A DNA stretch of 64,000 nt from Escherichia phage vB_EcoM-UFV13. The notes beneath the pieces were generated by a model. It had not been told where the DNA came from. It did no database searches and was given only the letters and a program-made list of their open reading frames with translations. The position numbers and the translations under genes were made by a program. Location: sequence record NC_031103.1; one strand, written 5' to 3'. This document shows, piece after piece, positions 3,673 to 26,377 of this stretch (its first letter is position 1; every line of letters begins with the position of its first letter).

Positions 3673-4677
3673 TTAACTTACCAATTCAATCCAAGCCGGA
3701 CGAAGTACATCTTGTACCATTTTAACTAATTCCTTTTTAATCAAAGAAGGATTATCCGCTTGAGTTAGAGTAATACCTTCACGAGAAGTTTCTTCCAAAA
3801 TATCTTGAACAGTTAGTCCCATCACCTTTCCAAAATCTTTAGGACCAATTTCGCCAATTTTAGAAATAACGTTATTTACTCGGTTCAGTGTAACGTAACA
3901 AGCTAAAATTCCCACCAATTTGTTATCAGCTTCTGATAGTTCAACTTTAGCTTTAATAGGCTTATCAGACTTTTTCTTTTCACTAAATTTGGAATTCTTG
4001 CATTTAATAGCTACACGATTGCGATTAGGCAGCCAAGAAGGATAACAAGGTTTCAATACATATCCTTCAGCGGTAAATACTTCGCCTTTAGCTTCGGCAT
4101 TCCAAACGCATTTATTTGCATCAACTAATCCAGCATGGTCTACTGTAAAATTATAATCTTGGACAACAGAATCTAAATCATTTGGCAATTTAATAAGCTC
4201 TTCAAATTTACCGCGGCCTAAAAGTGGAGCCATTTTAAATTTAAATGTATTACAGAATGATTCCATCATATAATCGTCGACATAAGTCACATCACCACTT
4301 TCTGTAGTGACAATAATGTCAAATACATAAAAATCTTTATCACCATAATCAACATTCTTCTGAATGCCAGGTCCAGCGAATTCGCCAAAGACTTGATAAG
4401 ATACAACCGCTGAGGTTTCCATAATATCTTGTACTGCTTTAATGGAATCAGCGTAATTCTTTAAAATAATTTCATACCCAAAGAAATCTTCAGCAGGAAG
4501 AATCGGTCCAGTACGTTTAGCGCAAGTTACTTTATCACGCTCAATAATCAATGAGAAATTTGTACCATGAATCTTTTCACGAGCTACCCACTCCCCACCA
4601 GTCAATCCCAAGCTGTAAAGTTTTTCAATAAATTTAGAGTTGTAATGATTTTCAAGACTGCTATACTTTTTAAACAT
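3673..4677 (-). CDS. rnlB: RNA ligase 2
   Basis: 334 aa; nucleotidyltransferase lysine motif KIHGTN near N-terminus; T4 Rnl2 length and position after gene 24. Confidence 0.93.
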
Positions 4678-4686
4678 AATTAATCC

Positions 4687-4965
4687 TCAAAATGTAATTT
4701 CTAACCAATCACCATCACGCTGATCACTATTGACTTTAAAGCTGAATCCTTCTTTTCTCAGCCAATCACCAATTTCTTCAGTAATCAATTTATCGCGAGC
4801 AGTACAATAATAACTAAAATATGTTTTACCTTGTTCAGCTGCTTTATTAGCAAGTTCTGAAAAATCTTTAATAAAACACTCTAGCTTAAACTGTTTACTT
4901 TTTAATGCTTTTTCACGTAATTGATTAGCAAAAGATTCATTTTCATAAAGATCATACTGTTCCAT
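4687..4965 (-). CDS. hypothetical protein, T4 24.2 position
   Basis: 92 aa ORF in early-gene orientation between rnlB and hoc. Confidence 0.6.
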   Translation of the reverse strand: MEQYDLYENESFANQLREKALKSKQFKLECFIKDFSELANKAAEQGKTYFSYYCTARDKLITEEIGDWLRKEGFSFKVNSDQRDGDWLEITF

Positions 4966-10249: not shown

Positions 10250-10875
10250 TACAATAGCTCAAAGAATTCTTTGAGTCCTCTTATTACATGAGCGTGAGTT
10301 TTTCCACACTCTGGACACTTAATTGGAACAGCCAAATAAACAGTAGGCTTTAAAAGCATATCTTTTATAGCTACAATATCTGACTCTGTGATGATAGAAT
10401 ATAAATCTTCCAGTTCTTTTTCATTTAAGTCTTCAACTGGAATGCTTTCCCCGTTAGCATGAATCGTTTCTATACATGATACTATCATGTGGGCTATATT
10501 TTTATCATCAAAAATTTTAGGGTAATGGAACTTAATTTTAATGTCACCCAGTGTATACCAGAGGTCTTCTGGTGCATCTATTTGTGTATGTAATAGATTT
10601 ATATGGGTTGGTATTTCAGTTCCACAGGTGCACTTCCAGGAGTTTTCGTGATTAACTTCACCAAGAGAATGTGCCCATAAATGAATCAACAATAGTTCTG
10701 ATTCTTGGCGGTTTAAATCTTTTGCATTTGTGCAGTCTTTGATTAGCTTTTTAACAATTACTTCTACGGAACCATTATTTTTGGCAGTAATAAGTTCTAG
10801 ATATTCTTTAAGCGTGAATGCGCGACAATTGATTATTTTAGAACCAACTCTCACGTCAAATTTGTATTCATACAT
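10249..10875 (-). CDS. 26: baseplate hub protein gp26
   Basis: 208 aa; divergent from gene 51 with shared late-promoter region. Confidence 0.9.
10250..10280 (-). promoter_or_regulatory. split ribosome-binding site of gene 25 with intervening hairpin
   Basis: Minus strand GAGGA-CTCAAAG-AATT-CTTTGAG-CTATTGTA-ATG; Shine-Dalgarno lies 26 nt from the ATG unless the hairpin forms. Confidence 0.75.
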
Positions 10876-17495: not shown

Positions 17496-17550
17496 CATGT
17501 TATGTCAGTAAGACTACTATAACACAACATAAGGAACTTGTAAACTACAT
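17496..17550 (-). promoter_or_regulatory. early promoter-like element plus leader (copy 1 of a duplicated element)
   Basis: Minus strand GTTTAC, 17-nt spacer, TATAGT-like -10, then GAGGA; near-identical to 32486..32541. Confidence 0.6.
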
Positions 17551-19602
17551 TTTGAACTTTTTAGACATTCCGTTGATGTTAACCAAAGAAGCTAAGATTT
17601 GAGAAACTTCGTTTTCCTCTTCTTTTGATTCTTCTACAAGGAATTGATTAAATCCAGTCATTGGACGAACTTCACCAGTTTCCATCAGATGGTCGCCATC
17701 ATATACTGATTCTTCTAATTGTTCAGAAGGAGGAACGATTGTACCTTCGATTAGATACTTGTTATAAGCAGTTTCTTTCATAAAGTAAGTACTTACTTTA
17801 TTAATCTTCAGTAAAATTCCACGCGGTAGAATAACTTCAGCTTCTGATGGAAATCCTGATAAATGACCTGGAACGATAACTTTGATTCGCTCAGCTCCTT
17901 TAATTACCATACCCACGCTAGTTTCAGCATCTTCATTAGCATATGTAGAATGACTACCCATATGCATTAAATCTTCGGCATCAACGGAACCTTCTCCTTC
18001 ACCAGAAAATACTGCGCCGGAATCATCTAGAGCCATATAGTTTTTACCATGCTCACCGAAGATATTTGGTTTAAGCGATGTGGATACGAAGTTCTTGAAA
18101 TAGAACATTTTATTTTCAATGTTATGACGCAAAGTTTTAAAGGTAACTTCTTGTCCACGGTAAAGTGTAGTTCCTGGAGGAAGAACTGATCCTTTGGCAA
18201 AGGCAGAATCCAACGTCTCGATGTGCTTAATAGCTCGTTCCATGTATTCTTCACGGGTAGAATCTGGTTTACCCAAAAGGAACGAGTTCATTTCAACATA
18301 TGAATCTGCACAATAATCTTCAATTACATCAGATTCAGCTTGGGTTAGTCCTTTTGGAGTTACTTCGGTGCTTGCGTATTCATATGCCTGAGCAGCAGAT
18401 TCATTAATCAATTTATAAATGCCATTCATTACAAATTGAATAATAGCTGTCTTTTCATCTGGTGTAGCTTTAGAACCTTTAACTAAATCATTGATAATTT
18501 TCTTAATAACATCAAAGCTATTAGAAATATTAATGTCAGCAAGATCACTTAAAATTTTATCAGTTTTATAATCAAAGAATTCTTTATTCTTTAAATATTC
18601 TTGAGAACCTTGATATGTTATATCGCTCTGCAGCTTGATAGATGGATCGCGTAAACGTGCATGGGCCAATGCAATATGATTTCGGAAGCTTTCTAGTTCA
18701 TAATCGTTAGATTTAAAACGAGAAGCACTTCTCATACCACCGATAGCTCCTTTGCTGAAGTTTGAACCAATCTGAATAACGCCAGAGTTCATTGGTCCTT
18801 CTGCTTTATATACCGGAACCTTAGATTCAAACTCTTGATATTTCTTAGCAGCGAAGCTATCACCCTGAAGTGAAGCGTCAACAGTAGAATATTGAGCTTG
18901 TGCTGCTAATCGACGACTAATTTTAGTTTTCTGAATAACAGCTTGGTCAGTACGTTTATCATTTTCTAAAGCAATAGAAGCAGCAACAGCGACAGCTTTA
19001 GGAACAGCATTACCTGTTTTAACGTCTACATAAACATCACCAACCTTTGATTCAACTTTTGTGAATAACTCAGTTGAAATAGGAGGTACACCTGGAATGT
19101 CTTCTAAATTGGCATTTTTACGGTAAACCATAATATATGCATATTTCTTATCATAGTCCCAGATTTCCTTTAAGAGAACATATCGACCTGCTCCTTTAGT
19201 ACGTACTAAACGGTCAGCAATAACTTGCATTTGACGAGCAGCGCCATTTGTTTTACTTTTTAGTACGCGGAATAGGCATGCATCAATTTTATACTGCTTC
19301 ATTGTTTGAAGAGCAGTATCAAAAACAGCATTAATGACACCAATTGGATTTCCACCCAAGTTTCTAAGCTTAACCAGCGATAATTTCTCGTTGACACCTA
19401 TCATTACGATATGCATCATTTTATCGCCTGGCTTAACGTTTTTATTTGTATCACCGCCAGAGGTGTATGTACAAAATCTAAATCCAGGAAGCACACTTTC
19501 TTCACCGGCTTGAATAGCAAAAATTTGAGGTATTTTATGCTTAGGATTTAAGTTAACAACCGGCGCCGAAGCGCCGTCAAATAATTCTGTAATAAGTTCC
19601 AT
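17545..19602 (-). CDS. Alt-family ADP-ribosyltransferase paralogue (second copy)
   Basis: 685 aa; N-terminus MELITELFD and blocks LCTYTSGGDTN, KQYKIDAC, GRYVLLKEIWDYDKKYAY shared with the adjacent Alt; ART R-S-E motifs (LYRGQ, FVSTSL, EAEVILPRG). Confidence 0.85.
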   Translation of the reverse strand: MELITELFDGASAPVVNLNPKHKIPQIFAIQAGEESVLPGFRFCTYTSGGDTNKNVKPGDKMMHIVMIGVNEKLSLVKLRNLGGNPIGVINAVFDTALQTMKQYKIDACLFRVLKSKTNGAARQMQVIADRLVRTKGAGRYVLLKEIWDYDKKYAYIMVYRKNANLEDIPGVPPISTELFTKVESKVGDVYVDVKTGNAVPKAVAVAASIALENDKRTDQAVIQKTKISRRLAAQAQYSTVDASLQGDSFAAKKYQEFESKVPVYKAEGPMNSGVIQIGSNFSKGAIGGMRSASRFKSNDYELESFRNHIALAHARLRDPSIKLQSDITYQGSQEYLKNKEFFDYKTDKILSDLADINISNSFDVIKKIINDLVKGSKATPDEKTAIIQFVMNGIYKLINESAAQAYEYASTEVTPKGLTQAESDVIEDYCADSYVEMNSFLLGKPDSTREEYMERAIKHIETLDSAFAKGSVLPPGTTLYRGQEVTFKTLRHNIENKMFYFKNFVSTSLKPNIFGEHGKNYMALDDSGAVFSGEGEGSVDAEDLMHMGSHSTYANEDAETSVGMVIKGAERIKVIVPGHLSGFPSEAEVILPRGILLKINKVSTYFMKETAYNKYLIEGTIVPPSEQLEESVYDGDHLMETGEVRPMTGFNQFLVEESKEEENEVSQILASLVNINGMSKKFKM

Positions 19603-19605
19603 GAT

Positions 19606-21702
19606 TTATCCTTGAACGAACTTGTAAGGCATGTTTGTAATATCTATGCAAGACGCAATAATTCCAAGAGATGATTCTACTTTCTGTTTAACATTTGATG
19701 AAACAAATGATGCAAAGTCAACTCTGTCTTCTACTTCAATATCACCTGTCATTGCAACTACTTCACCGGTTTCCATTAAATGGTCTCCGTCATAGATTAC
19801 CGATTCGGTGAGCTCTTCCGTAGTCATAACTTCAGCTTGAATGAGTTTTGTATTATTAGATGTTGTTCCGTCATTATTAGAAGCATCAGTTATTTTATTA
19901 ACTTTGACCATCAATCCGCGCGGTAGAATAACTTCAGCTTCTGTTGCTATTCCGAGACTTCCTGGATATACAACATTAACTTTATGAGCTCCATCAATTG
20001 CCCATCCTATTTGAACTTTAACGTATTCAGGATTTTCTTTATACGCTCTTATTTCGTTTGGATTAATAGTTATTCCTTCTTCATTTTTATCAACTGTTAA
20101 TTCATTGCGAGCTTCTGGTTCTAAAAGACCAATACCAGCATGTGTAATTCCAAAACGTCCAAAAATGATAGGAGTTAAAGAAGTAGATACAAAATTTCTG
20201 AAATAGAACACTTTATTTTTAACTAGTGCTTCGTATATAGGAGCAGTCATACTTTGAGCACGATAAACTGTAATGCCTTCCGGTATGCGGTCACCATTTT
20301 CAAAAGCTGAATCTAAATTATTTATAGCAGATTCAATTTCTTTTTCACTCATTACATCATATCGTTCTGGATTGTAACGACCTAAAAGAAGATTATTAAT
20401 GTCTGTATATCCTGAACCACAATATTCTCTAATACCTCGCTTTTGTGATGGAGTATATTTAGAACCATCACGGGCGATAGTAATATCAATCATTGGACCA
20501 GCGCCAATTCCGGAAAAGCTATAAATCATTCGTTTGAGGAATTTAGTTTTTGCCGCATTCCAGGCATTTTTAGTTATTTCTCCCCAGACTTCATCTGACT
20601 GCCCTTTACGAGTTTTATTATGTTTATCAAGCCAATTATCTTTGTATTCTTCAAAGAATTTATTAACAGCTGCTGCGTATTTCTCTAAACATTTTATTGA
20701 AGTAGTTGGTTCATTTTTGATTGCGTTAAAAATTACATCTTTAATTTTTTCTGAAACTTCATCAACCTCACTTTTTGAAAAGAATTTATAGTCATAGTGA
20801 AGTTCATTCGCAGTTCCTTCGGCAATAATTTTTGCTGCCTTAGTTTTAGAAGCTAATGAATTAATTCCAAGCTTCATTTCTTCTGCTTCGGGAATTAAAG
20901 GAGCGGTAGCAGGTTTATTGAAATTAGCTGCGGTAGATTCATACTTCTGGAATAATTCACTTTCAAATCTAGAAGATTCCAATGATTGACTTTGCGCAAT
21001 TGCTCTACGGGAAATTTTAACTTTAACGATTACAGCTTGGTCAGAACGCTTATCATTTTCTTGCGCAATAGATGCTGCAATTGCCTCATTTTTAGTTACT
21101 TGGGCTCCAGTATCTTTATTGATATAAACATCACCGACCTTCGATTCAACTTTAGTAAAGAGCTCGGTACTAATTTCCGGAACTCCTGGAATGTCTTCTA
21201 GCGATACATTTTTGCGATGTATAAGAATATATGCATACTTTTTATCGTAATCCCAGAGTTCCTTAAGAAGGACGTATCTGCCACCTGAACGACTACGGAT
21301 AAGTCTATCAGCAATAACTTGAATTTGTCGAGCTTGACCAGCAGTTTTAGACTTAAGAATACGAAGCATACAAGCATCAATTTTATATTGACGCATAGTT
21401 TGCATTGCAACAGTAAAAACTGAATTGATATAATTAATTGGGCTTGGACCAAGACCTTTTAATTTAGCAATTGAACCTTTAGCAGTTAATGTAAAAGGAA
21501 CAATATGCATCATTTTATCGCCCATCTTTAAATCGCGATTAGTATCACCTCCAGATGTATAGGTACATAAACGAAAGCCTGGTTGTTCAATTGCATCATC
21601 AACATGAACTGAAAAAATTTGTGGTATTTTCTTCTTTGGATTTAAGTTTGTAATCGGAAGAGTAGTATCTTCGTCAAATAATTCTGTAATAAGTTCCATC
21701 AT
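19606..21702 (-). CDS. alt: Alt ADP-ribosyltransferase (packaged, modifies host RNA polymerase)
   Basis: 698 aa matching recalled T4 Alt sequence; ART motifs VYRAQ, FVSTSL, EAEVILPRG; late promoter motif upstream. Confidence 0.9.
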   Translation of the reverse strand: MMELITELFDEDTTLPITNLNPKKKIPQIFSVHVDDAIEQPGFRLCTYTSGGDTNRDLKMGDKMMHIVPFTLTAKGSIAKLKGLGPSPINYINSVFTVAMQTMRQYKIDACMLRILKSKTAGQARQIQVIADRLIRSRSGGRYVLLKELWDYDKKYAYILIHRKNVSLEDIPGVPEISTELFTKVESKVGDVYINKDTGAQVTKNEAIAASIAQENDKRSDQAVIVKVKISRRAIAQSQSLESSRFESELFQKYESTAANFNKPATAPLIPEAEEMKLGINSLASKTKAAKIIAEGTANELHYDYKFFSKSEVDEVSEKIKDVIFNAIKNEPTTSIKCLEKYAAAVNKFFEEYKDNWLDKHNKTRKGQSDEVWGEITKNAWNAAKTKFLKRMIYSFSGIGAGPMIDITIARDGSKYTPSQKRGIREYCGSGYTDINNLLLGRYNPERYDVMSEKEIESAINNLDSAFENGDRIPEGITVYRAQSMTAPIYEALVKNKVFYFRNFVSTSLTPIIFGRFGITHAGIGLLEPEARNELTVDKNEEGITINPNEIRAYKENPEYVKVQIGWAIDGAHKVNVVYPGSLGIATEAEVILPRGLMVKVNKITDASNNDGTTSNNTKLIQAEVMTTEELTESVIYDGDHLMETGEVVAMTGDIEVEDRVDFASFVSSNVKQKVESSLGIIASCIDITNMPYKFVQG

Positions 21703-23400: not shown

Positions 23401-23666
23401 TGTTCATCCTTTAGAGTTTGGTTTACAGCTCTATTATAAATCAATTCATCATTAAGCTCAGTCAAAGACCTGTGGTATGTGGTTCTAACTTTATTTCCTT
23501 GCATCCAGTGCTTGACGTAAATGAAACCTTGCTCTACACATTTTTTAAAAATTCGTTCGTCTTTTTGAGCTCGGAATTCTGGATTGCATCTAAAAAATTG
23601 ATTTACGTGACCGTAATCACGTGTAGTATTACCTTCATTTTCATAAATAGTGTGAACGACAAACAT
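23397..23666 (-). CDS. hypothetical protein, T4 30.1 position
   Basis: 89 aa ORF, translationally coupled to neighbours. Confidence 0.7.
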   Translation of the reverse strand: MFVVHTIYENEGNTTRDYGHVNQFFRCNPEFRAQKDERIFKKCVEQGFIYVKHWMQGNKVRTTYHRSLTELNDELIYNRAVNQTLKDEQ

Positions 23667-24505
23667 TAGAATGCTCCTTGGAAAATATTATCACCACTAG
23701 TAGGTCTATTATACAAATACTCTATGCCACCAGGTTTAATATAGTTCCATGTCTGAAACGGATGTGTCTGATATGGATGATATAGATGATTATAAGGATT
23801 AAATCCAGGAGTTCTCCAGGTAGTGTTCCAAGGAAAAGAATCGTTTTTGATCATCTTCTCAATTACATCTTTTATAACTTTTTCACTATCAAAACTTTCT
23901 TTATTTTCCTTCGATGGAAAAAGCTTATTCTCTACATCATTCCATGTATAAACTCGCTGTGCAGTTTTTGGAATACTGTCACGCTCTCCTCGAGCCATCC
24001 AATAAACAGGAACACTTAATATTTCACTCGCATGATCGCAGTGGTGAGCGAGATCGTCAATATAACAAATTACGTTATATTTCTCTTTTGCCTTTTTGAA
24101 CAACTCTTCTTTTGAAGAATCATGACCACACATCAATACTTCTGAGAAGGCACCAGGAAAAAGAGCATTCAAATTAAATTGACGATTCAGCAGAGCGTCA
24201 ATAGAATCACCCAGTGCTGTAACAGCTACAAAATTATAATCTTCTTTTAATTTGTTAATTACACACAGGGCATCTTTATATGGCGACAAGTAACGAATAA
24301 AATCTGAACGATTGTATTTTTCAATTAGCTTAACGCCAAGTTCTTCATCACAATTAAAAAGTTTACCAGGAGAAATAAATTTCTCATCCTGGATCATTTT
24401 TAAAATATGTTCTAACGGAAGATTATATTTCTGAGCAAAATAAGGAAGGCCTGATTGCCAGCTTAAACATACACCATCAATATCAGTCAAAATAGTAGGC
24501 TTCAT
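23666..24505 (-). CDS. hypothetical protein with HAD/5'-nucleotidase-like N-terminal motif, T4 30.2 position
   Basis: 279 aa; N-terminal LTDIDGV resembles HAD-superfamily motif I (DxDG). Confidence 0.7.
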   Translation of the reverse strand: MKPTILTDIDGVCLSWQSGLPYFAQKYNLPLEHILKMIQDEKFISPGKLFNCDEELGVKLIEKYNRSDFIRYLSPYKDALCVINKLKEDYNFVAVTALGDSIDALLNRQFNLNALFPGAFSEVLMCGHDSSKEELFKKAKEKYNVICYIDDLAHHCDHASEILSVPVYWMARGERDSIPKTAQRVYTWNDVENKLFPSKENKESFDSEKVIKDVIEKMIKNDSFPWNTTWRTPGFNPYNHLYHPYQTHPFQTWNYIKPGGIEYLYNRPTSGDNIFQGAF

Positions 24506-24960
24506 AGAGAGTCTCTTAATAGGTTTAACACATCAATAAATTCAGCTTCGGTTAGTATTGTATCATCTTTTGTTAGACCACTAGCCATGCTGTGCTTCAA
24601 AACTTTTCCTTTCGAGGCTAGTAATGCATCACGAAAGCCCTTGTTTTGGATCGCTGCTTCAAAATATGCATTTGTGTATAATTCTTTCCACGCTGGGGAG
24701 TATCTTGAAAACGGAACTCCCAGCCAGAAGAGGGTCCCACGGTCCTGAGCTCTTGCATAAGACCTTCCAGCTTGTTGGGCGGCCAATCCGGAGAGCCTAA
24801 ATATACGTTTTTGTTGTTCAACATTTTTCACCTTGCATCCTTGGAGGAATCCTTCAAGACCTCCAAATTGGATACCATCCATAACAAAAGGCCATTGGGC
24901 GAAATTACTTAATGCGCATGATGGCCATCTAAAATTACTTCTTATCTCTAACTCAGACAT
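24502..24960 (-). CDS. NADAR (YbiA-like) domain candidate, T4 30.3 position
   Basis: 152 aa; N-terminal block SNFAQWPFVMDGIQFGGLEGFLQGCK matches the YbiA/NADAR signature SNFA-WP---DG--F---E-F-Q--K as recalled. Confidence 0.6.
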   Translation of the reverse strand: MSELEIRSNFRWPSCALSNFAQWPFVMDGIQFGGLEGFLQGCKVKNVEQQKRIFRLSGLAAQQAGRSYARAQDRGTLFWLGVPFSRYSPAWKELYTNAYFEAAIQNKGFRDALLASKGKVLKHSMASGLTKDDTILTEAEFIDVLNLLRDSL

Positions 24961-25168
24961 CTTTAATACTTATAATTTCAACATCAGCCCAATGACCATA
25001 ACTTGGCAGACGGTCTTCAATAGATAATCCGCCATCATATTTAAGCATTTTAATTGTCATAATATATGGCTCTAAATGGTCTTCTGTGAGCGGAGAAACG
25101 TCAGTCACACGATAAGTAACTTCAACCATTTCCGTACCTAATAATTTCTGAATTAATTTCTTAAACAT
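24953..25168 (-). CDS. hypothetical protein
   Basis: 71 aa ORF in 30.x early cluster. Confidence 0.6.
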   Translation of the reverse strand: MFKKLIQKLLGTEMVEVTYRVTDVSPLTEDHLEPYIMTIKMLKYDGGLSIEDRLPSYGHWADVEIISIKDV

Positions 25169-25172
25169 ATTA

Positions 25173-25460
25173 TCAGAACCTCATCTGAAAACCGTGTGAT
25201 TTAACATTACCGCCACCAATATCAGAGATATTAATTTCGCGCGCAATTGAAGGGTCAATGTCAATTTCATGATTAAGTTTAGTGATAGCTAAAGTATCAC
25301 GCCCATTTACTGTACGGAATTCTAAAGGACAAACCACATCAACGTAATTTTTAATCGATTCACTTGTAGGTTGCAAATGTACAGGAAGGTCTTTGGGCGC
25401 CTTTGAGAAAACAACTTCACAGAAATTTTTGCGGGTGTCAAAATAAGTAGTCATAAACAT
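25173..25460 (-). CDS. hypothetical protein
   Basis: 95 aa ORF; UUCG hairpin and GAGGAAAA Shine-Dalgarno immediately upstream. Confidence 0.65.
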   Translation of the reverse strand: MFMTTYFDTRKNFCEVVFSKAPKDLPVHLQPTSESIKNYVDVVCPLEFRTVNGRDTLAITKLNHEIDIDPSIAREINISDIGGGNVKSHGFQMRF

Positions 25461-25934: not shown

Positions 25935-26267
25935 TTATTTTACTACTTTCCAATGCTTCATGTCAAGTTTACCAACTTTTTTCATCTTCTCAATTAAGCG
26001 TTCGGCACGTTGGCGAGCTGTAACATAATACCATTCACCTAATTCATTTTGTTCAATTTTTCCAACGATTACTGTATTCAATTCATAAATCCAACCAGTA
26101 AAGAAATTATGAACTTGAATTGTAAAGGTGAAATCTGTTCCCATACCTTCTGTTGTTTCTACTTCAATAATATCACCTTCAACTGCCATTAAGAACCACA
26201 TAGTTTCATCATATGCACCGTTGAAGCATTTAGTTTTAACAGCAGCGTTCAGATTAATCGTTTTCAT
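25935..26267 (-). CDS. hypothetical protein
   Basis: 110 aa ORF preceded by early promoter-like sequence and AAGGAG. Confidence 0.65.
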   Translation of the reverse strand: MKTINLNAAVKTKCFNGAYDETMWFLMAVEGDIIEVETTEGMGTDFTFTIQVHNFFTGWIYELNTVIVGKIEQNELGEWYYVTARQRAERLIEKMKKVGKLDMKHWKVVK

Positions 26268-26324: not shown

Positions 26325-26354
26325 AACTTTATGCAATCTTTGGAAAATAAAAAA

Positions 26355-26372
26355 GGACTCCCGAAGGAGTCC
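26355..26372 (-). terminator. rho-independent terminator
   Basis: Minus strand GGACUCC-UUCG-GGAGUCC followed by TTTTTTATTTT. Confidence 0.75.
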
Positions 26373-26377
26373 TCAAC

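Follow-up and report, generated by a model that had tools for sequence, protein, structure and literature searches.

Gene 30.3 of Escherichia phage vB_EcoM-UFV13 is an ortholog of the T4 anti-DarT factor adfN and encodes a predicted NADAR-fold protein

We report that a 152-aa open reading frame (ORF) of Escherichia phage vB_EcoM-UFV13 is the ortholog of T4 gene 30.3, which Johannesman et al. renamed adfN for anti-DarT factor NADAR (Nat Commun 2025; PMC11825919); the gene has thus already been characterized, and the stretch studied here adds no new biology to it. The protein is very probably an AdfN, that is, a minimal, core-only ADP-ribosylglycohydrolase of the NADAR fold that would repair DarT1-modified guanine in phage DNA. 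Sequence comparison and a predicted structure establish for this ORF its orthology, the NADAR fold, the conserved catalytic residues, and an intact C-terminal helix. The window, by which we mean the whole 64,000-nucleotide stretch analyzed (sequence record NC_031103.1), comes from a Tequatrovirus about 96 to 97% identical to many T4-like phages. The features under discussion are collected in Table 1.

Table 1. Features of the window in and around gene 30.3
Feature	Position	Strand	Details
Alt-family ADP-ribosyltransferase ORF	17545..19602	minus	685 aa; PF03496, E = 5.8e-20
Alt-family ADP-ribosyltransferase ORF	19606..21702	minus	698 aa; PF03496, E = 2.2e-37
Gene 30, DNA ligase	21937..23400		
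Gene 30.2	23666..24505	minus	279 aa; HAD-like
Gene 30.3 (adfN) CDS	24502..24960	minus	ATG-initiated, 152 aa plus TGA stop (24502..24504); from ORF list and PF08010
C-terminal helix, residues 138-152	24505..24549	minus	Intact; predicted helix H138-151, pLDDT >95
H123, phage-clade histidine, codon CAC	24592..24594	minus	Invariant in the family alignment (74 sequences)
30.3', alternative-frame ORF inside 30.3 (as in T4)	24618..24824	minus	68 aa
K43, catalytic lysine (by homology), codon AAG	24832..24834	minus	At least 90% conserved in the family alignment; aligns to YbiA K55
NADAR signature block SNFAQWPFVMDGIQFGGLEGFLQGCK, residues 18-43	24832..24909	minus	Aligns to YbiA residues 30-55, SNFAAWPIKVDGKTWPTSEHYFQAQK
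E36, catalytic glutamate (by homology), codon GAA	24853..24855	minus	Invariant in the family alignment; aligns to YbiA E48
Gene upstream of 30.3 (30.4 position)	24953..25168	minus	71 aa
Candidate sigma-70-type promoter	25966..25937	minus	Pattern match only
GC-rich hairpin plus T-run	26374..26353	minus	Pattern match only

Identity of the ORF and its superfamily

The ORF is a genuine gene and not a chance reading frame, because its product matches the Pfam family PF08010 (Phage_30_3, "Bacteriophage protein GP30.3"; E = 3.6e-70, 234.6 bits, gathering score 36) over profile positions 1 to 138 of 138 and also phrog_652 (E = 1.2e-51), because tblastn finds a homolog of it in 1509 phage records, and because its codon differences from T4 30.3 are biased toward synonymous ones (16 synonymous and 4 nonsynonymous). 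The encoded protein is identical to T4 gp30.3 (NP_049816) at 148 of 152 positions (97%), in an alignment that runs gapless to residue 152. The four substitutions, with the window residue given first, are K51R, R55G, L114Q, and M125I; they lie off the catalytic positions, M125 being two residues from H123.

The NADAR superfamily (de Souza & Aravind 2012) corresponds to Pfam PF08719. An initial annotation of the window had described a 152-aa ORF with a NADAR/YbiA-like block, and both the ORF and the block, SNFAQWPFVMDGIQFGGLEGFLQGCK at residues 18 to 43, are indeed present. It had also named a search against PF08719 as a check. That match is absent even at an E value of ≤10 in hmmscan, whose output for the ORF consists of PF08010 and a chance match to DUF724 only; the protein falls in PF08010 instead. 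A refutation based on the lack of a NADAR profile hit would, however, have been a false negative, as this clade has a Pfam model of its own, PF08010.

When the ORF product was compared as a single sequence with the PDB by phmmer, the YbiA chain 2b3w was recovered with an alignment lying exactly on the signature block, at an E value of 0.25 that is not significant for a single sequence. We then used a profile built from 74 full-length family members (35 to 97% identity), in which S18, N19, F20, F25, E36, G37, F38, and Q40 are invariant. Against the PDB sequence set this profile returned YbiA as its sole match (E = 0.0076), with no residue-level match to 8bau (PnNADAR with ADP-ribose) or 8bat at E ≤ 10, and its hhalign comparison with Escherichia coli YbiA gave a probability of 94.1% (E = 1.2e-7) over 91 columns. 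PF08719 itself is matched by 28 of the 74 family members, with a best E value of 1.5e-7. An AlphaFold2 model computed on the alignment (pLDDT 92.9, pTM 0.89) has the alpha-helical core flanked by small beta-hairpin sheets that characterizes the NADAR fold. The structural comparison with YbiA that the initial annotation had called for came out in its favor: the best three Foldseek matches of the model in the PDB are the three solved NADARs, namely YbiA (E = 2.1e-5), the Phytophthora NADAR with ADP-ribose, and the Geobacter lovleyi NADAR, and beyond these three no match falls below an E value of 3. Profile and fold tests therefore agree on the NADAR/YbiA-like identity first proposed, despite the weak single-sequence similarity. 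We place the protein in the NADAR superfamily on profile comparison and a predicted structure, the two levels at which the homology becomes visible, and within it the ORF belongs to the phage NADAR clade Phage_30_3 (PF08010), which is that of AdfN of T4.

Active site and C-terminal helix

In characterized NADARs, the catalytic Glu and Lys lie in the helix that follows the SNF motif, as E88 and K95 in the E. coli C7 NADAR and E43 in PnNADAR (PMC11543638, PMC11825919); the ORF product has both, as E36 and K43. A further catalytic position on the last strand is His in phage NADARs, Glu in the YbiA type, and Asp in the DarG1 type (PMC11543638, PMC11125620, PMC12945103). H123 lies on the last strand of our model (E120-123), one column beyond the end of the hhalign alignment, and stands opposite YbiA E125 when that alignment is extended. 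As the profile search of the PDB gave YbiA alone, the mapping of H123 draws on the YbiA alignment together with the literature. In T4 AdfN, the E36A variant, which served as the catalytically inactive control in the in vitro DNA assay, gave only partial rescue of RB69, as did K43A; both variants are thus impaired yet partly active in vivo (PMC11825919).

The importance of the C-terminal helix is known from RB69, a DarTG1-sensitive phage whose allele carries a frameshift that removes the last 15 residues, and T4 AdfN cut at the position of that frameshift has reduced activity (PMC11825919). Some Tequatrovirus alleles in our collection (records H30-H32, locus L013) align to the ORF product over residues 1 to 144 only. 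As their divergence falls in the helix on which full activity of AdfN depends, they may be naturally occurring alleles of low or no activity, comparable to that of RB69.

Function of AdfN and its relation to known systems

The function of the T4 protein is already established. DarTG1 resistance of T2 and T4 was mapped to 30.3 with recombinant phages, deletion of adfN from either phage abolishes plaquing on DarTG1 cells, expression of adfN rescues RB69, and purified T4 AdfN strips ADP-ribose from DarT1-modified DNA (PMC11825919). In vitro, Schuller and colleagues observed that T4 gp30.3 hydrolyzes guanosine-ADP-ribose and not thymidine-ADP-ribose (PMC11125620). Guanosine-ADP-ribose is also removed from RNA in vitro (PMC11833690), and cytidine-ADP-ribose is not a substrate of the T4 NADAR (PMC12945103). 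In a genome-wide transposon screen of T4, 30.3/adfN was dispensable on K-12 and completely depleted on DarTG1 hosts (bioRxiv 10.1101/2025.11.20.689424). As a side observation, Methods 4.2 of the 2024 Toxins paper (PMC11125620) give the T4 NADAR construct as "gp30.3; residues 1-208", and T4 30.3 (10308..10766 of our T4 locus, L001) encodes 152 aa; the larger number may be a misprint, count a tag, or belong to another protein.

Removal of ADP-ribose from guanine, as the initial annotation had suggested for the ORF, is accordingly on record for a protein that is 97% identical (PMC11825919, PMC11125620). By analogy with this T4 protein we ascribe to the window protein its enzymatic activity, its guanine specificity, and its necessity and sufficiency against DarTG1; the window allele, with its four substitutions off the catalytic positions, probably behaves as that of T4 does, and the gene is probably expressed early. 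The wider suggestion that the gene counters DarT-type toxins stands for DarT1, the toxin of DarTG1, and falls for DarT2, given that adfN deletions of T4 and T2 stay resistant to DarTG2 (PMC11125620, PMC11825919). Since DarT2 modifies thymidine and T4 gp30.3 acts on guanosine-ADP-ribose, DarT2 is the wrong subfamily for an assay of adfN. For T4, the reported anti-DarTG2 factor is the macrodomain protein Tk.4/AdfM (bioRxiv 10.1101/2025.11.20.689424), and it is this protein, not AdfN, that a plaque assay on DarT2 hosts would actually detect. Tk.4/AdfM shares with AdfN the strategy of a phage-encoded orphan copy of the hydrolase domain of an antitoxin, but has an unrelated macrodomain fold and is directed against DarTG2, the system with the thymidine-modifying toxin; its gene lies elsewhere in T4, by its name in the tk cluster, and apparently outside the ligase region covered by the window.

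In the mechanism that we favor, a T-even phage entering a cell that has the DarTG1 toxin-antitoxin defense meets DarT1, which ADP-ribosylates guanine in its DNA and blocks its replication. AdfN, made from the early-region operon 30.9-30.1, would hydrolyze the guanine-ADP-ribose bond by means of E36, K43, and H123, after which the restored DNA could be replicated. AdfN would act in this as an orphan antitoxin, similar to DarG1 but without a toxin partner.

Comparison with the known NADARs bears on this picture at several points. With T4 AdfN, the window gene shares its length, its place between 30.2 and 30.4, the E36/K43/H123 triad, and the intact C-terminal helix; it differs in the four substitutions and in its surroundings, where the 30.4 neighbor is only about 51% identical and 30.5 is absent. 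The DarG1 antitoxins (DarT1-linked, BC4488-type, such as the G. lovleyi protein 8bat and the E. coli C7 NADAR) are encoded next to their toxins, whereas the window gene is an orphan; their third catalytic residue is an Asp (D171 in the E. coli C7 NADAR), where the window protein has H123; and DarG1, with 219 aa, has an additional N-terminal helix and sheets that form an electropositive channel, in contrast to the core-only window protein of 152 aa (PMC12945103). Nor can T4 AdfN replace DarG1 in uninfected cells. E. coli YbiA (PDB code 2b3w), which has a Glu at the H123 position, is encoded in the chromosome between rhlE and dinG, in an operon reportedly controlled by LexA (PMC11125620); it is a metabolic N-glycosidase with additional roles in swarming, and NADARs of its type also remove cytidine-ADP-ribose, which the T4 NADAR does not (PMC12945103). 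Functional parallels are AdfN-Bas32 and AdfN-Bas60 (from T5-like phages and Vequintavirinae), which are likewise orphan NADARs of phages, active against DarTG1 and specific for the guanine adduct. They were, however, independently acquired from other branches of NADARs. They can rescue unrelated phages and do not need an infection to neutralize DarT1; the T4 type works fully only in T-even infections.

Genomic neighborhood and competing explanations

Gene order in the window is 30, 30.1, 30.2, 30.3, 30.4, 30.6, 30.7, which through 30.4 is that of T4 (NC_000866), with T4 30.5 missing. Four nucleotides (ATGA) are common to the 30.3 stop and the 30.2 start, and 8 nt to the 30.3 start and the end of 30.4, an arrangement that fits a cotranscribed and translationally coupled early cluster. 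The genes flanking 30.3 (30.2 and 30.4) encode no DarT or ADP-ribosyltransferase domain, so that 30.3 has no DarT1 partner there and is an orphan gene. A near-consensus sigma-70-type pattern (TTGACA, an 18-nt spacer, and TAAAAT; 11 of 12 matches) occurs upstream of 30.7, in the 3' end of 30.8, and is a candidate for the early promoter of a 30.7-30.1 transcript that would include adfN. Just downstream of the 30.9 ORF there is a GC-rich hairpin with a T-run behind it.

Two further observations concern the immediate surroundings of adfN. The gene at the 30.4 position is identical to T4 30.4 at 34 of 67 residues (about 51%), and its flanking genes are at least 97% identical to T4; T4 30.5 has no counterpart, 30.6 (25173..25460, identical at 92 of 95 residues) following directly after the 25168/25173 junction. 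Judging from these alignments, the gene and the junction form a small hypervariable spot beside the counterdefense gene. Within 30.3, the alternative-frame ORF 30.3' ends seven codons earlier than in T4 (68 versus 75 aa) and differs from it at 10 of 68 residues, compared with 4 of 152 in the overlapping 30.3 frame. Its changes are mostly synonymous for 30.3, so that selection does not seem to act on a 30.3' protein.

DarT1 in uninfected E. coli is not neutralized by T4 AdfN, and non-T-even phages are poorly rescued by it, so that a picture built on the enzyme alone is incomplete; a T-even-specific factor may be needed for its full action. We therefore looked at gp30.2 as a possible partner. 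It has all four HAD-phosphatase motifs (I to IV: D8xD10, T96, K132, and D150D151), which are invariant across four genera in an alignment that includes Tequatrovirus, Lazarusvirus, and Pseudotevenvirus, and it looks like a HAD-superfamily phosphatase. Its matches to the NT5C, HAD_PNKP (PNKP-phosphatase), and 5'(3')-deoxyribonucleotidase models are all subthreshold, and a four-sequence 30.2 profile recovered nothing meaningful from the PDB. The last ~80 residues are rich in P, W, Y, and N and are T-even specific. Of 86 related loci, only 21 have a 30.2 homolog no more than 4 kb from the NADAR gene, and nearly all of these have DNA ligase there as well. In the text of the transposon-screen preprint, the gene named for DarTG1 is 30.3/adfN, and 30.2 does not occur (bioRxiv 10.1101/2025.11.20.689424). 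We rejected gp30.2 as a T-even cofactor of AdfN as unsupported, the co-occurrence amounting to synteny with the ligase. In Vibrio phage phi-Grn1 (KT919972, Schizotequatrovirus; 4007..4958 of locus L007), the NADAR homolog lies away from the ligase, upstream of gp47/gp46, and overlaps a downstream 5'(3')-deoxyribonucleotidase of the NT5C family (PF06941; E = 3e-12). This HAD has no detectable relation to gp30.2 beyond the DxD motif, and phi-Grn1 presents a second, independent NADAR-HAD adjacency that is possibly coincidental.

That AdfN has a second physiological substrate or requires a phage-encoded partner is an idea that we regard as unlikely, though less so than the alternatives below. It is raised by the full activity of the T4 protein in T-even infection only and by the retention of the family in well over a thousand T4-like phages, whose hosts are many. 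The further targets might be guanine-ADP-ribose in RNA or the adducts of some toxin different from DarT1, and the dependence might be on another T-even protein; the linkage of 30.2 to the NADAR gene being only synteny, our tests argue against gp30.2 in that role.

The initial annotation had noted two Alt-family genes about 3 kb from the ORF and proposed cooperation with them. Both genes are there, the nearer one ending 2.8 kb from the ORF; they are full-length tandem paralogs, while T4 has one alt plus alt.-1 and alt.-2, short remnants that go back to an old partial duplication according to its annotation, and several related phages are annotated with two copies. From such a setting one may suppose that the NADAR mainly edits or reverses ADP-ribosylation by the phage's own Alt, ModA, or ModB on proteins or RNA, with counterdefense as a side effect. 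The position of both paralogs on the same strand, 2.8 to 7 kb downstream of 30.3, would suit this supposition, the same remark on Alt had been made from context by Iyer et al. (2022; PMC9503650), and the T4 NADAR does act on RNA in vitro (PMC11833690). We nevertheless consider it very improbable. Only 15 of the 86 related loci have Alt at a distance of up to 4 kb from the NADAR gene, all inside the conserved ligase block, and this proximity within one syntenic block led us to reject a functional link and leaves the proposed cooperation unsupported. Moreover, Alt is annotated in T4 and in one related phage record as a mono-ADP-ribosyltransferase of proteins (RNA polymerase/NAD+-arginine), whereas the NADAR activities in the literature cited here are all on base-linked ADP-ribose (guanine, plus cytosine for some families), and 30.3 is essential only when DarTG1 is present (bioRxiv 10.1101/2025.11.20.689424).

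Two other roles seem to us more improbable still. A housekeeping function like that of E. coli YbiA and its plant counterparts, in which the protein would act as an N-glycosidase of reactive riboflavin biosynthesis intermediates and not in DNA repair or counterdefense, has in its favor that YbiA is the nearest solved sequence relative and that the ORF weakly matches the NCBIfam model TIGR02464 (riboflavin biosynthesis intermediates N-glycosidase; E = 0.065). However, that match, with 13.5 bits, is far below the model's cutoff of 73.7, the invariant H123 stands where the YbiA family has its defining glutamate, the published phylogeny places phage NADARs nearest the DarG1 antitoxins, and the T4 ortholog has a DarTG1-specific phenotype and removes ADP-ribose from DNA; we give this role next to no credence. 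Before 2023, phage NADARs in general were predicted to degrade soluble ADP-ribose-derived immune signals or toxins and not DNA adducts, a role proposed on contextual grounds (Iyer et al. 2022; PMC9503650) to which the core-only architecture of the ORF product, lacking the extra N-terminal elements of the electropositive channel of DarG1 (PMC12945103), would be congenial. Direct demonstration of DNA de-ADP-ribosylation by the T4 protein and its DarTG1-specific phenotype speak against this, and the literature cited here reports no soluble NADAR substrate, which makes this prediction, too, exceedingly unlikely for the ORF.

Repair of DarT1-modified guanine by an AdfN ortholog thus stays our reading of the gene. 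Its recognition illustrates that the split between PF08010 and PF08719 in Pfam can mask a well-characterized function in a routine domain scan, and it is useful for annotation because most database records still label the gene "hypothetical protein." For the biology of the phage, it means that this T4-like genome carries an intact gene for counterdefense against DarTG1, knowledge of which helps to predict host range on DarTG1-bearing E. coli.
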